Positions 4,282 through 36,372 of a stretch of 39,427 nucleotides of DNA are shown here, one piece after another. The notes beneath the pieces are model-generated. The model saw nothing but the letters and a program-made list of their open reading frames with translations. It was not told the origin of the DNA and did not search any database. Both the position numbers and the translations under genes were made by a program. The stretch comes from Escherichia phage 04922B: the sequence record OP331230.1; one strand, written 5' to 3'. Position 1 is the stretch's first letter; the number at the start of each line of letters is the position of its first letter.

Positions 4282-4304
4282 TAATACGACTCACTATAGG
4301 GAGA
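4282..4304 (+). promoter_or_regulatory. T7-RNAP class III promoter phi13
   Basis: taatacgactcactatagggaga, exact 23-bp consensus. Confidence 0.93.
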
Positions 4305-7622: not shown

Positions 7623-10600
7623 ATGGATAAGTACGATAAGAACGTACCAAGTGATTATGATGGTCTGTTCCAAAAGGCGGCTGATGCCAACGGGGTCTCT
7701 TATGACCTTTTACGTAAAGTCGCTTGGACGGAATCACGATTTGTACCTACAGCAAAGTCTAAGACTGGACCATTAGGTATGATGCAATTTACCAAGGCAA
7801 CCGCTAAGGCCCTTGGTCTGCGAGTTACCGATGGTCCAGATGACGACCGACTGAACCCTGAGTTAGCTATCAACGCTGCTGCTAAGCACCTTGCGGGTCT
7901 GGTTGGTAAATTCGATGGTGATGAACTCAAAGCTGCCCTTGCGTATAACCAAGGCGAGGGACGCTTGGGTAATCCACAACTTGAGGCGTACTCTAAGGGA
8001 GACTTCGCGTCCATCTCTGAGGAGGGGCGTAATTACATGCGTAGCCTTCTGGATGTTGCTAAGTCACCTATGGCTGGACAGTTGGAAACTTTTGGAGGCA
8101 TCACCCCAAAGGGTAAAGGAATTCCGGCTGAGGTAGGATTGGCTGGAATTGGTCATAAGCAGAAGGTGACACAGGAACTACCTGAGTCCACAAGTTTTGA
8201 CGTTAAGGGTATCGAACAGGAGGCTCCGGCGAAACCATTCGCCAAGGACTTTTGGGAGACCCACGGAGAAACGCTTGACGAATACAACAGTCGTTCAACC
8301 TTCTTCGGATTCAAAAATGCTGCCGAAGCTGAACTCTCCAACTCAGTCGCTGGGATGGCTTTCCGTGCTGGTCGTCTCGATAATGGTTTTGACGTGTTTA
8401 AAGACACCATTACGCCGACTCGCTGGAACTCTCACATCTGGACTCCAGAAGAGTTAGAGAAGATTAGAACAGAGGTTAAGAACCCTGCGTACATCAACGT
8501 GGTAACTGGTGGTTCCCCTGAGAATCTTGACGACCTCATTAAGCTGGCTAACGAGAACTTTGAGAATGACTCACTAGCTGCCGAAGCTGGTCTAGGTGCA
8601 AAACTGAGTGCTGGTATTATTGGCGCTGGCGTGGACCCTCTTAGCTATGTCCCTATGGTCGGTGTCACTGGTAAGGGCTTTAAGTTAATCAATAAGGCTC
8701 TTGTAGTTGGTGCAGAAAGTGCTGCTCTGAACGTTGCATCCGAAGGTCTCCGTACCTCCGTAGCTGGCGGTGACGCAGACTACGCTGGTGCGGCCTTAGG
8801 TGGCTTTGTGTTTGGCGCTGGTATGTCTGCAATCAGTGACGCTATAGCTGCTGGACTTAAACGTAGTAAACCAGAAGCTGAGTTCGATAATGAGTTCATC
8901 GGCCCTATGATGCGGATGGAAGCCCGTGAGACAGCACGCAACGCCAACTCTGCTGACCTCTCTCGGATGAACACTGAGAACATGAAGTTTGAAGGTGAAC
9001 ATAATGGTGTCCCTTATGAGGACTTATCAACCGAGAAAGGTGCCGTGGTGTTACAGGATGGCTCCGTTCTAAGTGCAAGCAACCCAATCAACCCTAAGAC
9101 CCTCAAAGAGTTCTCCGAGGTTGACCCTGAGAAGGCTGCGAGAGGAATCAAACTTGCTGGATTCACCGAGATAGGCTTGAAGACCTTGGGGTCTGACGAT
9201 GCTGACATCCGTAGAGTGGCTATCGACCTCGTTCGCTCTCCTACTGGTATGCAGTCTGGTGCCTCCGGTAAGTTCGGTGCAACAGCTTCTGACATCCATG
9301 AGAGACTTCATGGTACTGACCAGCGTACTTATAATGACTTGTACAAAGCAATGTCTGACGCTATGAAAGACCCTGAGTTCTCTACTGGCGGCGCTAAGAT
9401 GTCCCGTGAAGAAGCTCGATACACTATCTACCGTAGAGCGGCACTAGCTATTGAGCGTCCAGAGTTGCAGAAGGCACTAACCCCGTCTGAGAGAATCGTT
9501 ATGGACATTATTAAGCGCCACTTTGACACCAAGCGTGAACTTATGGAGAATCCTGCAATCTTCGGTAATACGAAGGCTGTGAGTATTTTCCCTGAGAGTC
9601 GCCACAAAGGGACTTACGTTCCTCACGTTTACGACCGTCATGCTAAAGCACTGATGATTCAACGCTACGGTGCCGAAGGTTTACAGGAAGGTATTGCTCG
9701 TTCGTGGATGAACAGCTACGTCTCCAGACCTGAGGTCAAGGCCAGAGTCGATGAGATGCTTAAGGAATTACACGGGGTGAAGGAAGTAACGCCAGAGATG
9801 GTAGAGAAGTACGCTATGGATAAGGCTTATGGTATCTCCCATTCAGACCAGTTCACCAACAGTTCCATCATTGAAGAGAACATTGAGGGCTTAGTAGGTA
9901 TAGAGAACAACTCATTCCTTGAGGCACGTAACTTGTTTGATTCGGACCTATCCATCACTATGCCAGACGGACAGCAATTCTCGGTGAACGACCTAAGGGA
10001 CTTCGATATGTTCCGCATCATGCCAGCGTATGACCGCCGTATTAATGGTGACATCGCCATCATGGGGTCTACTGGTAAAACCACTAAGGAACTTAAGGAT
10101 GAGATTTTGGCTCTCAAGGCGAAAGCTGAGGGTGACGGTAAGAAGACTGGCGAGGTTCATGCTCTAATGGATACCGTTAAGATTCTTACTGGTCGTGCTC
10201 GACGCAATCAGGACACTGTGTGGGAAACCTCACTGCGTTCCATCAATGACCTAGGGTTCTTCGCTAAGAACGCCTACATGGGTGCTCAGAACCTTACGGA
10301 GATTGCTGGTATGATTGCCACGGGCAACGTTCGTGCTCTAGGCCACGGTATCCCAATTCTGCGTGATACACTCTACAAGTCTAAACCAGTTTCCGCTAAG
10401 GAACTCAAGGAACTCCATGCGTCTCTGTTCGGGAAGGAGGTGGACCAGTTGATTCGCCCTAAACGTGCTGACATTGTGCAGCGCCTAAGGGAAGCAACTG
10501 ATACTGGCCCTGCTGTGGCGAACATCGTAGGGACCTTGAAGTATTCCACACAGGAACTGGCTGCTCGCTCTCCATGGACTAAGATGCTGAACGGGACCAC

Positions 10601-11579
10601 TAACTACCTTCTGGATGCGGCACGTCAAGGTATGCTAGGGGACGTTATTAGTGCCACCCTAACAGGTAAGACTACCCGCTGGGAGAAAGAAGGATTCCTT
10701 CGTGGCGCCTCCGTAACTCCTGAGCAGATGGCTGGCATCAAGTCTCTCATCAAGGAGCATATGGTCCGTGGCGAGGACGGGAAGTTTACCGTTAAGGACA
10801 AGCAAGCGTTCTCTATGGACCCTCGTGCTATGGACTTATGGCGACTTGCTGACAAGGTAGCTGATGAGGCAATGCTGCGTCCACACAAGGTGTCCTTACA
10901 GGATTCCCATGCGTTCGGAGCATTAGGTAAAATGGTTATGCAGTTTAAGTCTTTCACTATCAAGTCACTTAACTCTAAGTTCCTGCGAACCTTCTACGAT
11001 GGGTACAAGAACAACCGAGCGATTGACGCTGCGTTGACTGGTATCATCTCTATGGGTCTCGCTGGGGGTTACTACGCTATGGCTGCACACGTCAAAGCAT
11101 ATGGGATGCCTAAGGAGAAACGTAAGGAGTACTTGGAGAGAGCACTGGACCCAACCATGATTGCACACGCTTCGTTGTCTCGTAGTTCTCAATTGGGTGC
11201 TCCTTTGGCTATGGCTGACCTAGTAGGTGGTGTCTTAGGGTTCGAGTCGTCCAAGATGGCTCGCTCTACGATTCTACCTAAGGACACCATGAAGGAACGA
11301 GACCCAAACAAACCGTACACCTCCAGAGAGGTAATGGGAGCTATGGGTTCAAACCTTCTGGAACAGATGCCTTCTGCTGGCTTTGTGGCTAACGTAGGGG
11401 CTACCTTAATGAATGCTGCTGGCGTGGTCAACTCACCTAACAAAGCAACCGAGCAGGACTTCATGACTGGCTTGATGCACTCTACCAAAGAGTTAGTACC
11501 TAACGACCCTCTTACTCAACAGCTTGTGATTAAGATTTATGAGGCCAATGGTGTTAACTTAAGGGAACGTAGGAAATAA
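7623..11579 (+). CDS. 16: Internal virion protein D (gp16) with N-terminal lytic transglycosylase domain
   Basis: 1318-aa ORF; N-terminus carries the SLT-type signature WTESRF...GPLGMMQF; length equals T7 gp16. Confidence 0.95.
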   Translation: MDKYDKNVPSDYDGLFQKAADANGVSYDLLRKVAWTESRFVPTAKSKTGPLGMMQFTKATAKALGLRVTDGPDDDRLNPELAINAAAKHLAGLVGKFDGDELKAALAYNQGEGRLGNPQLEAYSKGDFASISEEGRNYMRSLLDVAKSPMAGQLETFGGITPKGKGIPAEVGLAGIGHKQKVTQELPESTSFDVKGIEQEAPAKPFAKDFWETHGETLDEYNSRSTFFGFKNAAEAELSNSVAGMAFRAGRLDNGFDVFKDTITPTRWNSHIWTPEELEKIRTEVKNPAYINVVTGGSPENLDDLIKLANENFENDSLAAEAGLGAKLSAGIIGAGVDPLSYVPMVGVTGKGFKLINKALVVGAESAALNVASEGLRTSVAGGDADYAGAALGGFVFGAGMSAISDAIAAGLKRSKPEAEFDNEFIGPMMRMEARETARNANSADLSRMNTENMKFEGEHNGVPYEDLSTEKGAVVLQDGSVLSASNPINPKTLKEFSEVDPEKAARGIKLAGFTEIGLKTLGSDDADIRRVAIDLVRSPTGMQSGASGKFGATASDIHERLHGTDQRTYNDLYKAMSDAMKDPEFSTGGAKMSREEARYTIYRRAALAIERPELQKALTPSERIVMDIIKRHFDTKRELMENPAIFGNTKAVSIFPESRHKGTYVPHVYDRHAKALMIQRYGAEGLQEGIARSWMNSYVSRPEVKARVDEMLKELHGVKEVTPEMVEKYAMDKAYGISHSDQFTNSSIIEENIEGLVGIENNSFLEARNLFDSDLSITMPDGQQFSVNDLRDFDMFRIMPAYDRRINGDIAIMGSTGKTTKELKDEILALKAKAEGDGKKTGEVHALMDTVKILTGRARRNQDTVWETSLRSINDLGFFAKNAYMGAQNLTEIAGMIATGNVRALGHGIPILRDTLYKSKPVSAKELKELHASLFGKEVDQLIRPKRADIVQRLREATDTGPAVANIVGTLKYSTQELAARSPWTKMLNGTTNYLLDAARQGMLGDVISATLTGKTTRWEKEGFLRGASVTPEQMAGIKSLIKEHMVRGEDGKFTVKDKQAFSMDPRAMDLWRLADKVADEAMLRPHKVSLQDSHAFGALGKMVMQFKSFTIKSLNSKFLRTFYDGYKNNRAIDAALTGIISMGLAGGYYAMAAHVKAYGMPKEKRKEYLERALDPTMIAHASLSRSSQLGAPLAMADLVGGVLGFESSKMARSTILPKDTMKERDPNKPYTSREVMGAMGSNLLEQMPSAGFVANVGATLMNAAGVVNSPNKATEQDFMTGLMHSTKELVPNDPLTQQLVIKIYEANGVNLRERRK

Positions 11580-11599
11580 TACGACTCACTATAGGGAGA
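11577..11599 (+). promoter_or_regulatory. T7-RNAP promoter phi17
   Basis: taatacgactcactatagggaga overlapping the gene 16 stop codon. Confidence 0.93.
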
Positions 11600-11651: not shown

Positions 11652-13316
11652 ATGGCTAACGTAATTAAAACCGTTTTGACTTACCCGTTAGATGGCTCCA
11701 ATCGTGATTTTAATATCCCGTTTGAGTATCTAGCCCGTAAGTTCGTAGTGGTAACTCTTATTGGTGTAGACCGAAAGGTCCTTACTATTAATACAGACTA
11801 CCGTTTTGCTACGCGTACTACCATCTCACTGACCAAGGCTTGGGGTCCAGCTGATGGCTATACTACCATCGAGTTACGTCGAGTAACCTCCACGACCGAT
11901 AGATTGGTTGACTTTACGGACGGCTCAATCCTCCGTGCGTATGACCTTAACGTCGCTCAGATTCAGACCATGCACGTTGCTGAGGAAGCGCGTGACCTTA
12001 CCGCTGATACTATTGGTGTCAACAACGATGGTCACTTGGACGCTCGTGGTCGCCGTATCGTGAACCTTGCTAACGCCGTGGATGACCGTGACGCTGTTCC
12101 GCTGGGGCAACTCAAGACCATGAACCAGAACTCGTGGCAGGCGCGTAATGAGGCCCTACAGTTCCGTAATGAGGCTGAGACTTTCAGAAATCAAGCGGAG
12201 GGCTTTAAGAACGAGTCTAGCACTAACGCTACGAACACTAATCAGTGGCGTAATGAGGCTAAGGGGTTCCGTGATGAAGCAGAGCAGTTCAAGAATACGG
12301 CTGGTCAATATGCTACATCTGCTGGGAACTCTGCTACTGCCGCACATCAATCTGAGGTGAACGCTGCTAACTCCGCAACTGCTTCCGCTAACTCTGCTAC
12401 TCTGGCAGAACAGCAAGCAGACCGCGCCGAGCGTGAGGCTGATAAACTTGGTAACTGGAACGGACTTGCTGGTGCTGTAGATAGTGTTCAGGGTGATAGT
12501 GTATTCTGGAAAGGAAGCGGCTATTGGGTCGGAGGTCCCGTATACCGACTACAAACGAACCACGCGTTTAGGTTCCGTATGGGTCTTTGGGAAGAAGGCG
12601 ACTTCCTTAAGTCTGACTTCGCTATGGACCGACCGGACGGTATAGGGTTCATAGAGTATGCAGCGGACAAGACTGGTCAACATCGTCACCAGATTCGACT
12701 TAATCAGTTAACAATAGCTGGCGGTGTGTTAGAGTCAGATGCTGATGGTTTCATATCCCACGCTTTCGCTGACCAGTACACCACTAAAGCTCCCTTCTTC
12801 CAGCAGATTCAGGTACAATCTACAAGCTCATATCACCCAATAATAAAGCAACGAACTTACCAATCTGGACGGTGGGCAGGATGCTGGTCTATCGGTACAT
12901 TGCTGACTGGAACGCATCCGTCATTCCACATACATATGAGAGACGAATCGTCAAATGATAAACTTTGGACGTTCAATACCAATGGAGACTTCCTCGTCCC
13001 TGGGGAGATTTGGGCCAATGGTGGGCGTGTGGTTGTACAGAATGGCTCTTTTAACCCTGCTGGTAGAGTTTGGGGTACTGCGTATGATTCTGGATACCTA
13101 GATGATTGGATAAGGGCTAACTGGCCCGGCGATATTTATTGGGGTCCTCAACGCTGGGTACAAAAGTGGGGAGGTTATGCAGACATAGTTGCTGGTGCTG
13201 GGGAAGCATGCTCTGGTGTAACCGCTGATGGTAGCGGTAACGTTGCGGGTGCATTCTTCCGAGCGCTTTGGCTTGGATATCACAACGGTAATAAACGATT
13301 GGTTGCTTCCCAATAA
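11652..13316 (+). CDS. 17: Tail fiber protein gp17; T7-like N-terminal half, unrelated C-terminal distal domain
   Basis: 554-aa ORF. Residues 1 to about 285 (MANVIKTVLTY...ADRAEREADKL) match T7 gp17; the rest (...FHIHMRD...GNKRLVASQ) does not match the T7 C-terminus I recall. Confidence 0.9.
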   Translation: MANVIKTVLTYPLDGSNRDFNIPFEYLARKFVVVTLIGVDRKVLTINTDYRFATRTTISLTKAWGPADGYTTIELRRVTSTTDRLVDFTDGSILRAYDLNVAQIQTMHVAEEARDLTADTIGVNNDGHLDARGRRIVNLANAVDDRDAVPLGQLKTMNQNSWQARNEALQFRNEAETFRNQAEGFKNESSTNATNTNQWRNEAKGFRDEAEQFKNTAGQYATSAGNSATAAHQSEVNAANSATASANSATLAEQQADRAEREADKLGNWNGLAGAVDSVQGDSVFWKGSGYWVGGPVYRLQTNHAFRFRMGLWEEGDFLKSDFAMDRPDGIGFIEYAADKTGQHRHQIRLNQLTIAGGVLESDADGFISHAFADQYTTKAPFFQQIQVQSTSSYHPIIKQRTYQSGRWAGCWSIGTLLTGTHPSFHIHMRDESSNDKLWTFNTNGDFLVPGEIWANGGRVVVQNGSFNPAGRVWGTAYDSGYLDDWIRANWPGDIYWGPQRWVQKWGGYADIVAGAGEACSGVTADGSGNVAGAFFRALWLGYHNGNKRLVASQ

Positions 13317-13325
13317 GGAGACATT

Positions 13326-13709
13326 ATGCGTAAATTTACTAACTGGACATACGAAGTAACTACCGCTTACGGCGGTATCGCCACTTATGACGTGACGGCC
13401 TCTTGTGGGACCGATTGGTATGAACTCATGGTTGAACTTGAGGACCGACCTGAGAGATGGGTCGTCGGTCTTGATAAGAACGGATTCATCTCATGGTTCT
13501 CCGATGGTACTGTTAACGGCACTTATGCGCCACCTGAGGGCGGTCTGGTGATTGTCACCGATGAGTTCGACCCTGAGTGGCAACGTGTTAAACTTTGGAA
13601 CGGGGAGTCCTTCGAGGATATCCCTAAGCCACCTAAACGTACACCTGAGGAAATCCAAGCAGACCTTGAGGCTCTGATGGTTGAACTTCGTGCGCTTAGG
13701 GAGGGATAA
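13326..13709 (+). CDS. Inserted 127-aa ORF absent from T7; possible tail-fiber assembly chaperone
   Basis: Strong RBS taaggagacattATG; sits between gene 17 and the holin where T7 has only a short spacer; segment PPEGGLVIVTDEFDPEWQRVKLWNGESF weakly resembles Tfa-type assembly proteins (memory-based, unverified). Confidence 0.6.
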   Translation: MRKFTNWTYEVTTAYGGIATYDVTASCGTDWYELMVELEDRPERWVVGLDKNGFISWFSDGTVNGTYAPPEGGLVIVTDEFDPEWQRVKLWNGESFEDIPKPPKRTPEEIQADLEALMVELRALREG

Positions 13710-13723
13710 TGGAGGTAAACTAA

Positions 13724-16593: not shown

Positions 16594-16616
16594 TAATACG
16601 ACTCACTATAGGGAGA
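16594..16616 (+). promoter_or_regulatory. T7-RNAP promoter phiOR
   Basis: taatacgactcactatagggaga upstream of gene 19.5. Confidence 0.92.
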
Positions 16617-35971: not shown

Positions 35972-36372
35972 TGTCTGAGTTCACATGTGTGGAAGCCAAA
36001 AGTCGCTTCCGTGCAATCCGGTGGACTGTAGAGCACCTTGGGTTGCCTAAGGGATTCGAAGGACACTTTGTTGGTTACAGCCTCTACGTTGACGAAGTTA
36101 TGGACATGTCTGGCTGCCGTGAAGAGTACATTCTGGACTCTACCGGAAAACATGTAGCGTACTTCGCGTGGTGCGTAAGCTGTGACATTCACCACAAAGG
36201 TGACATTCTGGATGTAACGTCCGTTGTCATTAATCCTGAGGCAGACTCTAAAGGCTTACAGCGATTCCTCGCGAAACGCTTTAAGTACCTTGCAGAACTC
36301 CACGATTGTGATTGGGTGTCCCGCTGCAAACACGAAGGCGAGACAATGCGTGTATACTTTAAGGAGGTATAA
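35971..36372 (+). CDS. 7: gp7, host-range/virion protein
   Basis: 133-aa ORF MSEFTCVEAKSRFRAIRWTVEHLGLPKGFEGHFVGYSLY..., recognised as T7 gp7. Confidence 0.93.
   Translation: MSEFTCVEAKSRFRAIRWTVEHLGLPKGFEGHFVGYSLYVDEVMDMSGCREEYILDSTGKHVAYFAWCVSCDIHHKGDILDVTSVVINPEADSKGLQRFLAKRFKYLAELHDCDWVSRCKHEGETMRVYFKEV

Follow-up and report, generated by a model that had tools for sequence, protein, structure and literature searches.

What does a small gene do between the tail fibre gene and the holin gene of a T7-like phage, at a place where T7 itself has no gene? In Escherichia phage 04922B (OP331230.1) a 384-nt open reading frame (ORF) fills this position. An earlier note on this DNA suggested that the ORF encodes a chaperone for a fibre whose distal part had been exchanged. 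Here, the locus was analysed in its whole sequenced stretch of 39,427 nt (the window), which is probably a whole, circularly permuted T7-like genome. According to our analysis, the ORF product very probably belongs to the Mu U / P2 G lineage of tail fibre assembly proteins (Tfa), as a short form whose N-terminal domain would dock on the tip of the fibre protein gp17, with tip and Tfa exchanged as one cassette. The features of the locus are listed in Table 1.

Table 1. Coordinates of the ORF and of neighbouring features in the window
Feature	Position	Strand	Description
T7-type late promoter, phi17 equivalent	11577..11599	+	promoter scan; exact consensus TAATACGACTCACTATAGGGAGA
Gene 16	7623-11579		part of the T7-like late region
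Gene 17 tail fibre, 554 aa	11652..13316	+	T7-type N-terminal anchor (residues 1-162), coiled shaft, non-T7 distal part from ~270
gp17 C-terminal domain, residues 477-554	13080..13316	+	5' half of the exchangeable cassette; proposed chaperone docking site
Shine-Dalgarno TAAGGAG	13314..13320	+	overlaps the gene 17 stop codon
ORF, 127 aa, ATG start, TAA stop	13326..13709	+	probable short Mu/P2-type tail fibre assembly protein
N-terminal alpha/beta domain of the ORF, ~residues 1-100	13326..13625	+	fold as the TfaMu fibre-binding domain in the predicted model; conserved W31, Y32, P69, G72
C-terminal amphipathic helix of the ORF, residues 107-126	13644..13703	+	heptad hydrophobics; putative oligomerisation role
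Class II holin (gp17.5), 67 aa	13724..13927	+	downstream neighbour, outside the module; identity to phage N30 recovers here

The factual statements of the earlier note on this locus all turned out to be correct. This includes the comparison with T7: gene 17 of T7 ends at 36285 and gene 17.5 starts at 36344, with a 58-nt spacer without ORF between them. In the window, the gap from gene 17 to the ORF is 9 nt and, as had been noted, that from the ORF stop to the holin ATG is 14 nt (13710–13723). The strong ribosome-binding site is present as well (upstream sequence ccaaTAAGGAGacattATG), and the stop codon TAA of gene 17 (13314–13316) makes up the first three bases of the Shine-Dalgarno sequence. 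The upstream protein is a T7-type fibre (Pfam Phage_T7_tail, residues 1–162, E 2e-73), with about 90–100% identity to T7 gp17 over roughly the first 270 residues and no relation to it further on, which agrees with the claim that its distal part was exchanged. The downstream gene product belongs to Pfam Phage_holin_2_2 (E 6.5e-35). After the promoter at 11577 the next phage promoter is at 16594, and with none in between, gene 17, the ORF and the holin gene are taken to be co-transcribed; in the ORF-holin interval, sigma-70 promoter and terminator signals were not above chance. The ORF is more aptly seen as the final gene of the virion-structure block than as a member of the lysis cassette.

Two further observations concern this layout. 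In the whole window, 12 promoters of the T7-RNA-polymerase type were found, all on the + strand (starts at 4282, 11577, 16594, 17495, 23455, 23530, 24016, 26727, 28407, 35369, 38301 and 39340), of which six have the exact consensus and six contain 1–3 mismatches, while 0 are expected by chance. Moreover, gene 17 and the ORF share a reading frame and are separated by TAA GGA GAC ATT, and read-through of the stop codon would fuse the fibre to the chaperone. Such a fusion was rejected: in-frame gaps (9 or 18 nt) are found in 8 of 16 homologous pairs, not clearly more often than by chance.

The ORF product (127 aa, 14.5 kDa, pI 4.3) is acidic and contains no hydrophobic segment, with a maximum Kyte-Doolittle value of 0.48. 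Homologues with 28–53% identity exist at the same slot and with the same length (125–136 aa) in dozens of phages, indicating that the ORF is a real gene. Using tblastn (E <= 1e-3) against 50,697 phage records, homologues were found in at least 57 records. The closest ones (97–98% identity) come from Escherichia phages C5, JB01 and AnnaIndermaur (Bas104) and from Serratia phage UFV01, followed by T7-like phages of Klebsiella, Erwinia, Pantoea, Serratia, Citrobacter, Yersinia and other Escherichia (31–64%), and about 40–48% identity was found in the T4-like Erwinia phages Cronus and IT22. Among these records, several homologues have already been annotated as 'tail fiber assembly protein' and one as 'tail fiber assembly protein U', and a Tfa of phage EmilieLinder has been published (PMC11990801). 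The arrangement had been thought to be undescribed in T7-type phages, and this is not so; genes of this kind have been described before, also from T7-like phages.

At the protein level, a word-indexed search returned a single near-identical match, and the family was recovered by an exhaustive search of cluster representatives. Here phmmer against 1.84 billion representatives gave just 26 matches, about 20 of which are true members of 113–136 aa, indicating a small and tight family; it comprises about 20 clusters at 50% identity. In the phmmer results, long proteins (351–1602 aa) match ORF residues ~40–105 in 2–9 repeated stretches (E 1e-7 to 7e-4), and the W-V-V-G-x-D-x-N-G-x-I-S-W segment may resemble a beta-hairpin repeat of unrelated large proteins. 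One homologue, from OM982647.1 ('Escherichia phage ST2', 171 kb, partial, labelled Kagunavirus), was set aside. In this record a T7-like block (fibre C-terminal fragment, ORF homologue, class II holin and small terminase) adjoins T4-like genes and the taxonomy label is inconsistent, and the record is probably a chimeric or mixed assembly.

To which known proteins is this family related? No Pfam family was found for the window ORF, and for 21 members, neither Pfam nor NCBIfam gave a meaningful match. When PDB sequences were searched, phmmer of the ORF found nothing and the family profile found only a nanobody (E 0.59). The profile-HMM search proposed in the earlier note had a divided outcome. 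Caudo_TAP (PF02413), which matches Mu U, Mu U', P2 G and lambda Tfa (E 1e-37 to 1e-43), does not match the ORF or any of the 21 members at E up to 1. However, phrog_136 ('tail fiber assembly protein'), to which Mu U, Mu U' and P2 G belong (E 1e-74 to 1e-82), is matched by 14 of the 21 members, with a best E of 4e-16. The window ORF itself matches it marginally (E 0.03, profile positions 33–124), and it is placed in the Mu/P2 Tfa family transitively, because these 14 clear homologues match. The family matches span positions ~13–132 of 178 in phrog_136, which corresponds to the N-terminal domain plus the beginning of the helical region and leaves out the last ~45 positions. A direct hhalign comparison between the ORF family and a thin three-sequence alignment of Mu/P2 Tfa proteins was weak (E 0.031, probability 1.6%).

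A likeness between the C-terminal segment of the ORF and the motif region of lambda and P2 Tfa proteins had also been proposed, and it holds for P2 but not for lambda. PPEGGLVIV...KLWNGESF of the ORF aligns with NPEGFSVVEVPD...GKWMFKDG of Mu U and P2 G, which can be extended to PPEGGLVIVTDEF...VKLWNGESF against NPEGFSVVEVPDI...GKWMFKDGA, and a G-x-[DN]-WY-E motif shared by the ORF, Mu U and P2 G adjoins the aligned region. The N-terminal part of lambda Tfa, in contrast, belongs to a different PHROG from phrog_136. By sequence, the ORF is classified as the Mu/P2 N-domain type and not as a lambda Tfa.

The predicted structure points to the same family. In the AF2 model of the ORF (pLDDT 95.7), an N-terminal alpha/beta domain with the TfaMu fold is present. 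When this model was searched against PDB by Foldseek, a check that the earlier note had also put forward, TfaMu (5yvq_B) ranked first (prob 1.00, E 3.7e-3) and no other entry was below E 1. In BFVD (predicted viral structures), two family members came first, followed by matches at E 2.5e-4 to 3.7e-2, which include six 'tail fiber assembly protein' entries of 137–199 aa; the others are named baseplate or tail fibers protein, or are unnamed. For the gp38 adhesin of T2/S16, no match to the ORF was found in fold or sequence. The structure prediction settles the modelled fold of the ORF product as Tfa-like.

Within this fold, the ORF represents a short form, in line with the observation that it is shorter than a canonical Tfa and does not contain the conserved C-terminal region. 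Mu U (TfaMu; 5YVQ chain B), Mu U' and P2 gpG (PHROG 136, Caudo_TAP) have 175–176 aa, whereas the ORF ends at about profile position 132 of 178, with the latter half of the conserved C-terminal helical region missing, and is not recognised by PF02413. In contrast to Mu U and P2 G, it carries a heptad helix of its own, 20 residues long and strongly conserved (RTKEDI-x-ADL-x-x-L-x-x-EL), and it occurs in a podovirus with T7-type fibres, not with a contractile-tail baseplate fibre. There are ten invariant residues in the 21-member alignment, and the most conserved segment of the family is the C-terminal R-T-K-E-D-I-x-A-D-L-x-x-L-x-x-E-L, in which R105, D113, L114, L117, E120 and L121 are invariant. 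The heptad hydrophobics (I110, L114, L117, L121 and L124) follow a 4-3-4-3 spacing in a nearly invariant helix. A shorter homologue was observed in Escherichia phage CICC 80001 (KM242061.1), a viable phage, where the protein of 109 aa (1268–1597 of the locus) stops before the C-terminal helix; the holin ATG follows immediately, and there is no helix-coding remnant in the other frames.

To figure out the relation between the ORF and the fibre, we compared the gene neighbourhoods of its homologues. A fibre gene lies directly upstream and co-oriented in all of the homologues examined (16 of 16), which include metagenomic and quite divergent Autographiviridae, and the gap between fibre gene and homologue is 8–18 nt in 15 of the 16 pairs. 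In Cronus, which is a myovirus, the homologue lies between the distal long-tail-fibre gene and holin t, and the C-terminal ~135 residues of the Cronus fibre are homologous to gp17 residues 420–553 (26% identity, E 5e-10). In all partner fibres, the last ~75 residues are conserved regardless of the middle part, with the pattern D-[VI]-[YW]-L-G...G-x-G-x-V-C-T-G...F-x-R-x-x-W...N-G-x-x-R-x-I-A-S.

The ORF also co-varies with this fibre terminus. In Mantel tests on pairwise identities, the correlation of the ORF with the last 75 fibre residues (rho 0.67, p 2e-4) is followed by those with the fibre N-terminus (rho 0.61, p 0.012), the holin (rho 0.57, p 0.005) and the fibre middle part (rho 0.25, p 0.007). 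The N-terminus and holin correlations are positive too, and part of the co-variation signal is thus shared phylogeny; on the pair subsets available for the N-terminus and the holin, rho for the last 75 residues is 0.74 and 0.81, respectively.

The natural swap seen against phage N30 is the cleanest evidence for the link to the fibre. DNA identity between the window and N30 is 80–100% up to 13079, falls to 55–68% from 13080 to about 13740 and returns to 77–98% after that, and blastn similarity resumes exactly at the holin ATG. The drop delimits the exchanged unit as gp17 residues 477–554 plus the ORF. Taken with the Tfa fold (5yvq_B as top match), the phrog_136 relatives, synteny and co-variation, the proposal of a cognate fibre chaperone is well supported. 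A comparison with phage C5 gave a separate observation: the ORF shows 4 differences in 384 nt, whereas in gene 17 a total of 127 codons are changed, 84 of them synonymously and 43 non-synonymously. Relative to C5, the ORF and gene 17 therefore differ in their recent history, indicating mosaicism inside the module.

If the ORF comes from the Mu/P2 lineage, what about its fibre? BLASTP between the gp17 tip and Mu S gave nothing, and phmmer of gp17 residues 271–554 against PDB was negative. The relation between the gp17 tip and Mu S is visible in profile-level comparisons only: hhalign of the fibre C-termini against Mu S / S' / P2 H gave E 1.8e-4 and a probability of 48% over 78 columns extending to both last residues, and E 5.6e-5 and a probability of 66% when the EmilieLinder fibre was added. 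Searched against PDB, the fibre-tip profile had Mu fibre S (5yvq_A) as best match, at just E 0.2. The C-terminal domain of Mu S is the part bound by TfaMu in 5YVQ. From these comparisons, the ORF and the fibre tip both appear to descend from the S-U / H-G pair of Mu and P2, with moderate support for the fibre half.

The closest published system is that of Teseptimavirus EmilieLinder (Bas103; PQ850602), in which a separate Mu-like Tfa, Gp60, is encoded downstream of a gp17-type fibre (Humolli et al. 2025, PMC11990801, S7 Fig and supplementary table); fibre and Gp60 were modelled by AlphaFold-Multimer as a 3:3 heterohexamer (pLDDT 74, pTM 0.78; PMC11990801). Gp60 is encoded at the position that the ORF has in the window, with a gp17-type fibre gene before it and the holin gene behind, and the two phages belong to the same genus. 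The two proteins are weakly related in the N-domain, with 30% identity over 57 residues (E 0.002), including a G-x-DWYEL motif, and the two fibre tips are weakly related as well, with 32% identity over 94 residues (E 4e-6). However, with 175 aa and a Caudo_TAP match (E 8e-10), Gp60 represents the full-length form, whereas the ORF is of the short form and belongs to a separate sequence family. Phages Bas102–104 need the O16 O-antigen (PMC11990801), and Bas104 is close to the window, with 93% identity in the fibre (DNA) and 97% in the ORF (protein); the O16 dependence suggests the receptor class of the window fibre.

Other phages use comparable arrangements. T4 gp38, together with gp57A, is the chaperone of the long tail fibre gp37 and has a fibre-specific assembly role, as proposed for the ORF family, and the Cronus homologue takes exactly the gp38 position, after the distal long-fibre gene and before holin t. 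However, no similarity between T4 gp38 and the ORF was detected in sequence or fold, and gp38 is not in the virion, whereas Mu-type Tfa is. The same modular logic, with a gene after the fibre gene, a variable fibre-binding N-domain and a helical trimerising C-part, is found in the chaperone gp25 of cyanophage Pam3 (7YPX) and in the 'chaperone caps' of Alteromonas phages; the 7YPX chain is a weak structural match to the ORF (Foldseek E 1.2), and sequence families and hosts differ.

Could the product act mainly at the receptor, or not act at all? In Mu and Ur-lambda, Tfa proteins persist in the mature virion and reportedly help to recognise the receptor (PMC9608196). The ORF product might be mainly a virion-borne adhesin on the fibre tip that contacts the receptor, like gp38 of T2/S16 and as has partly been proposed for Mu Tfa, with chaperoning as a secondary role. 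The high variability of the family across phages of different hosts (28–53% identity) and the gp38 slot of the Cronus homologue would fit this, but the gp38-type fold of T2/S16 finds no support in the searches, and we consider the adhesin role unlikely as the main function, although it may be an added one. The lack of ~45 C-terminal residues of canonical Tfa, the failure of Pfam Caudo_TAP and the CICC 80001 copy that also ends without the helix could instead indicate a decaying, functionless remnant of a full-length Tfa, hitch-hiking with the fibre-tip cassette. A length kept at 125–136 aa, ten residues invariant over about 20 clusters (50% identity), a strong, conserved and closely spaced ribosome-binding site and a very confident fold prediction are hard to bring together with decay, and the C-terminal helix is the most conserved segment, unlike a decaying end; a remnant is thus highly improbable.

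Position and annotation suggest two other functions. The holin gene adjoins the ORF both in T7-like phages and in Cronus, as would be expected of a protein with a role in lysis, for instance an antiholin or a regulator of the holin, but the holins of these phages belong to unrelated families while the fibre tips upstream are homologous, and the ORF is missing from T7 and other phages with the same holin. Together with the soluble, acidic character of the product without a transmembrane segment, its Tfa fold and a cassette boundary at the holin start codon, this leaves a lysis function with a very slim chance. A single-stranded DNA-binding protein (SSB) is named in the records of VAC1, HZP2, KPP-5 and VR4605, and one of the 21 members has a weak NCBIfam match to SSB (E 0.068, below any cutoff). 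Nevertheless, no Pfam SSB or OB-fold match was found and the fold search gave Tfa, not an OB fold; moreover, an SSB of their own (gp2.5) is encoded at another place in the genomes of T7-like phages, which also counts against it, and the probability of an SSB is close to nil. The 'ssDNA-binding protein' label on the homologues in MZ428229.1, MK542821.1/NC_048164.1, MW600722.1 and OM103160.1 is probably a propagated misannotation. Most homologues are named 'hypothetical protein', and 'tail fibre assembly protein (short Mu/P2 type)' is the supported name for them.

For the preferred reading, a short-form Tfa of the Mu U / P2 G lineage, the following mechanism can be proposed. According to the Tfa model of North et al. 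2019 (summary in PMC9608196), a variable N-terminal domain binds the distal end of the fibre and a conserved C-terminal helical domain provides oligomerisation, through which fibre folding starts correctly at the C-termini. In the window, the ORF would be transcribed late with gene 17 from the phi17-type promoter and translated from the Shine-Dalgarno sequence that overlaps the fibre stop codon, and this tight translational coupling would supply Tfa in matching amounts. The TfaMu-gpS complex (5YVQ) suggests, by analogy, docking of the N-terminal alpha/beta domain of the ORF product on the last ~75 residues of gp17 (~477–554). Three Tfa copies, gathered by the conserved 20-residue heptad helix, may keep the C-termini of the three fibre chains in register, and trimerisation and folding would then begin at that end. 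Homology, fold, synteny, co-variation and the cassette boundaries come directly from the analysis, and we infer physical binding, stoichiometry and the role of the helix from these analogies; afterwards, Tfa would either remain bound to the mature fibre, like the Mu protein, or leave it, like T4 gp38. The ~0.66-kb cassette of fibre C-terminal domain and Tfa (13080–13709) is swapped as a unit among T7-like phages, and is also found in a T4-like myovirus.

The C-terminal domain, the functional core of Tfa in the published model, is mostly missing from the ORF. It is possible, though we lean against it, that the ORF is a 'minimal Tfa', in which a single 20-residue heptad helix replaces most of the Caudo_TAP C-terminal domain, and that the ~0.66-kb cassette needs nothing else for folding and travels as a portable unit from podoviruses with T7-type fibres to T4-like myoviruses or back. 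If this is true, most of the Caudo_TAP C-terminal domain, the universal functional core in the current model, would be replaceable, and the cassette could graft foreign receptor-binding tips onto T7. A Tfa in which most of the conserved C-terminal domain is missing puts the published two-domain model to a modest natural test. T7-like phages are a favoured chassis for host-range engineering via fibre swapping, and if the tip needs a co-transferred chaperone, the unit to move would be from gp17 residue ~477 to the ORF stop. The interest of the locus is modest and lies in the truncated architecture, the sharply bounded cassette of tip plus Tfa, and its occurrence in podoviruses and a T4-like myovirus.

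A minor observation was made in one metagenomic T7-like relative, which contains a gene with an Endonuclease_7 domain (1842–2267 of the contig) between the spanin and large terminase genes. This gene is not found in two near-identical sibling contigs and is probably a mobile nuclease insertion.
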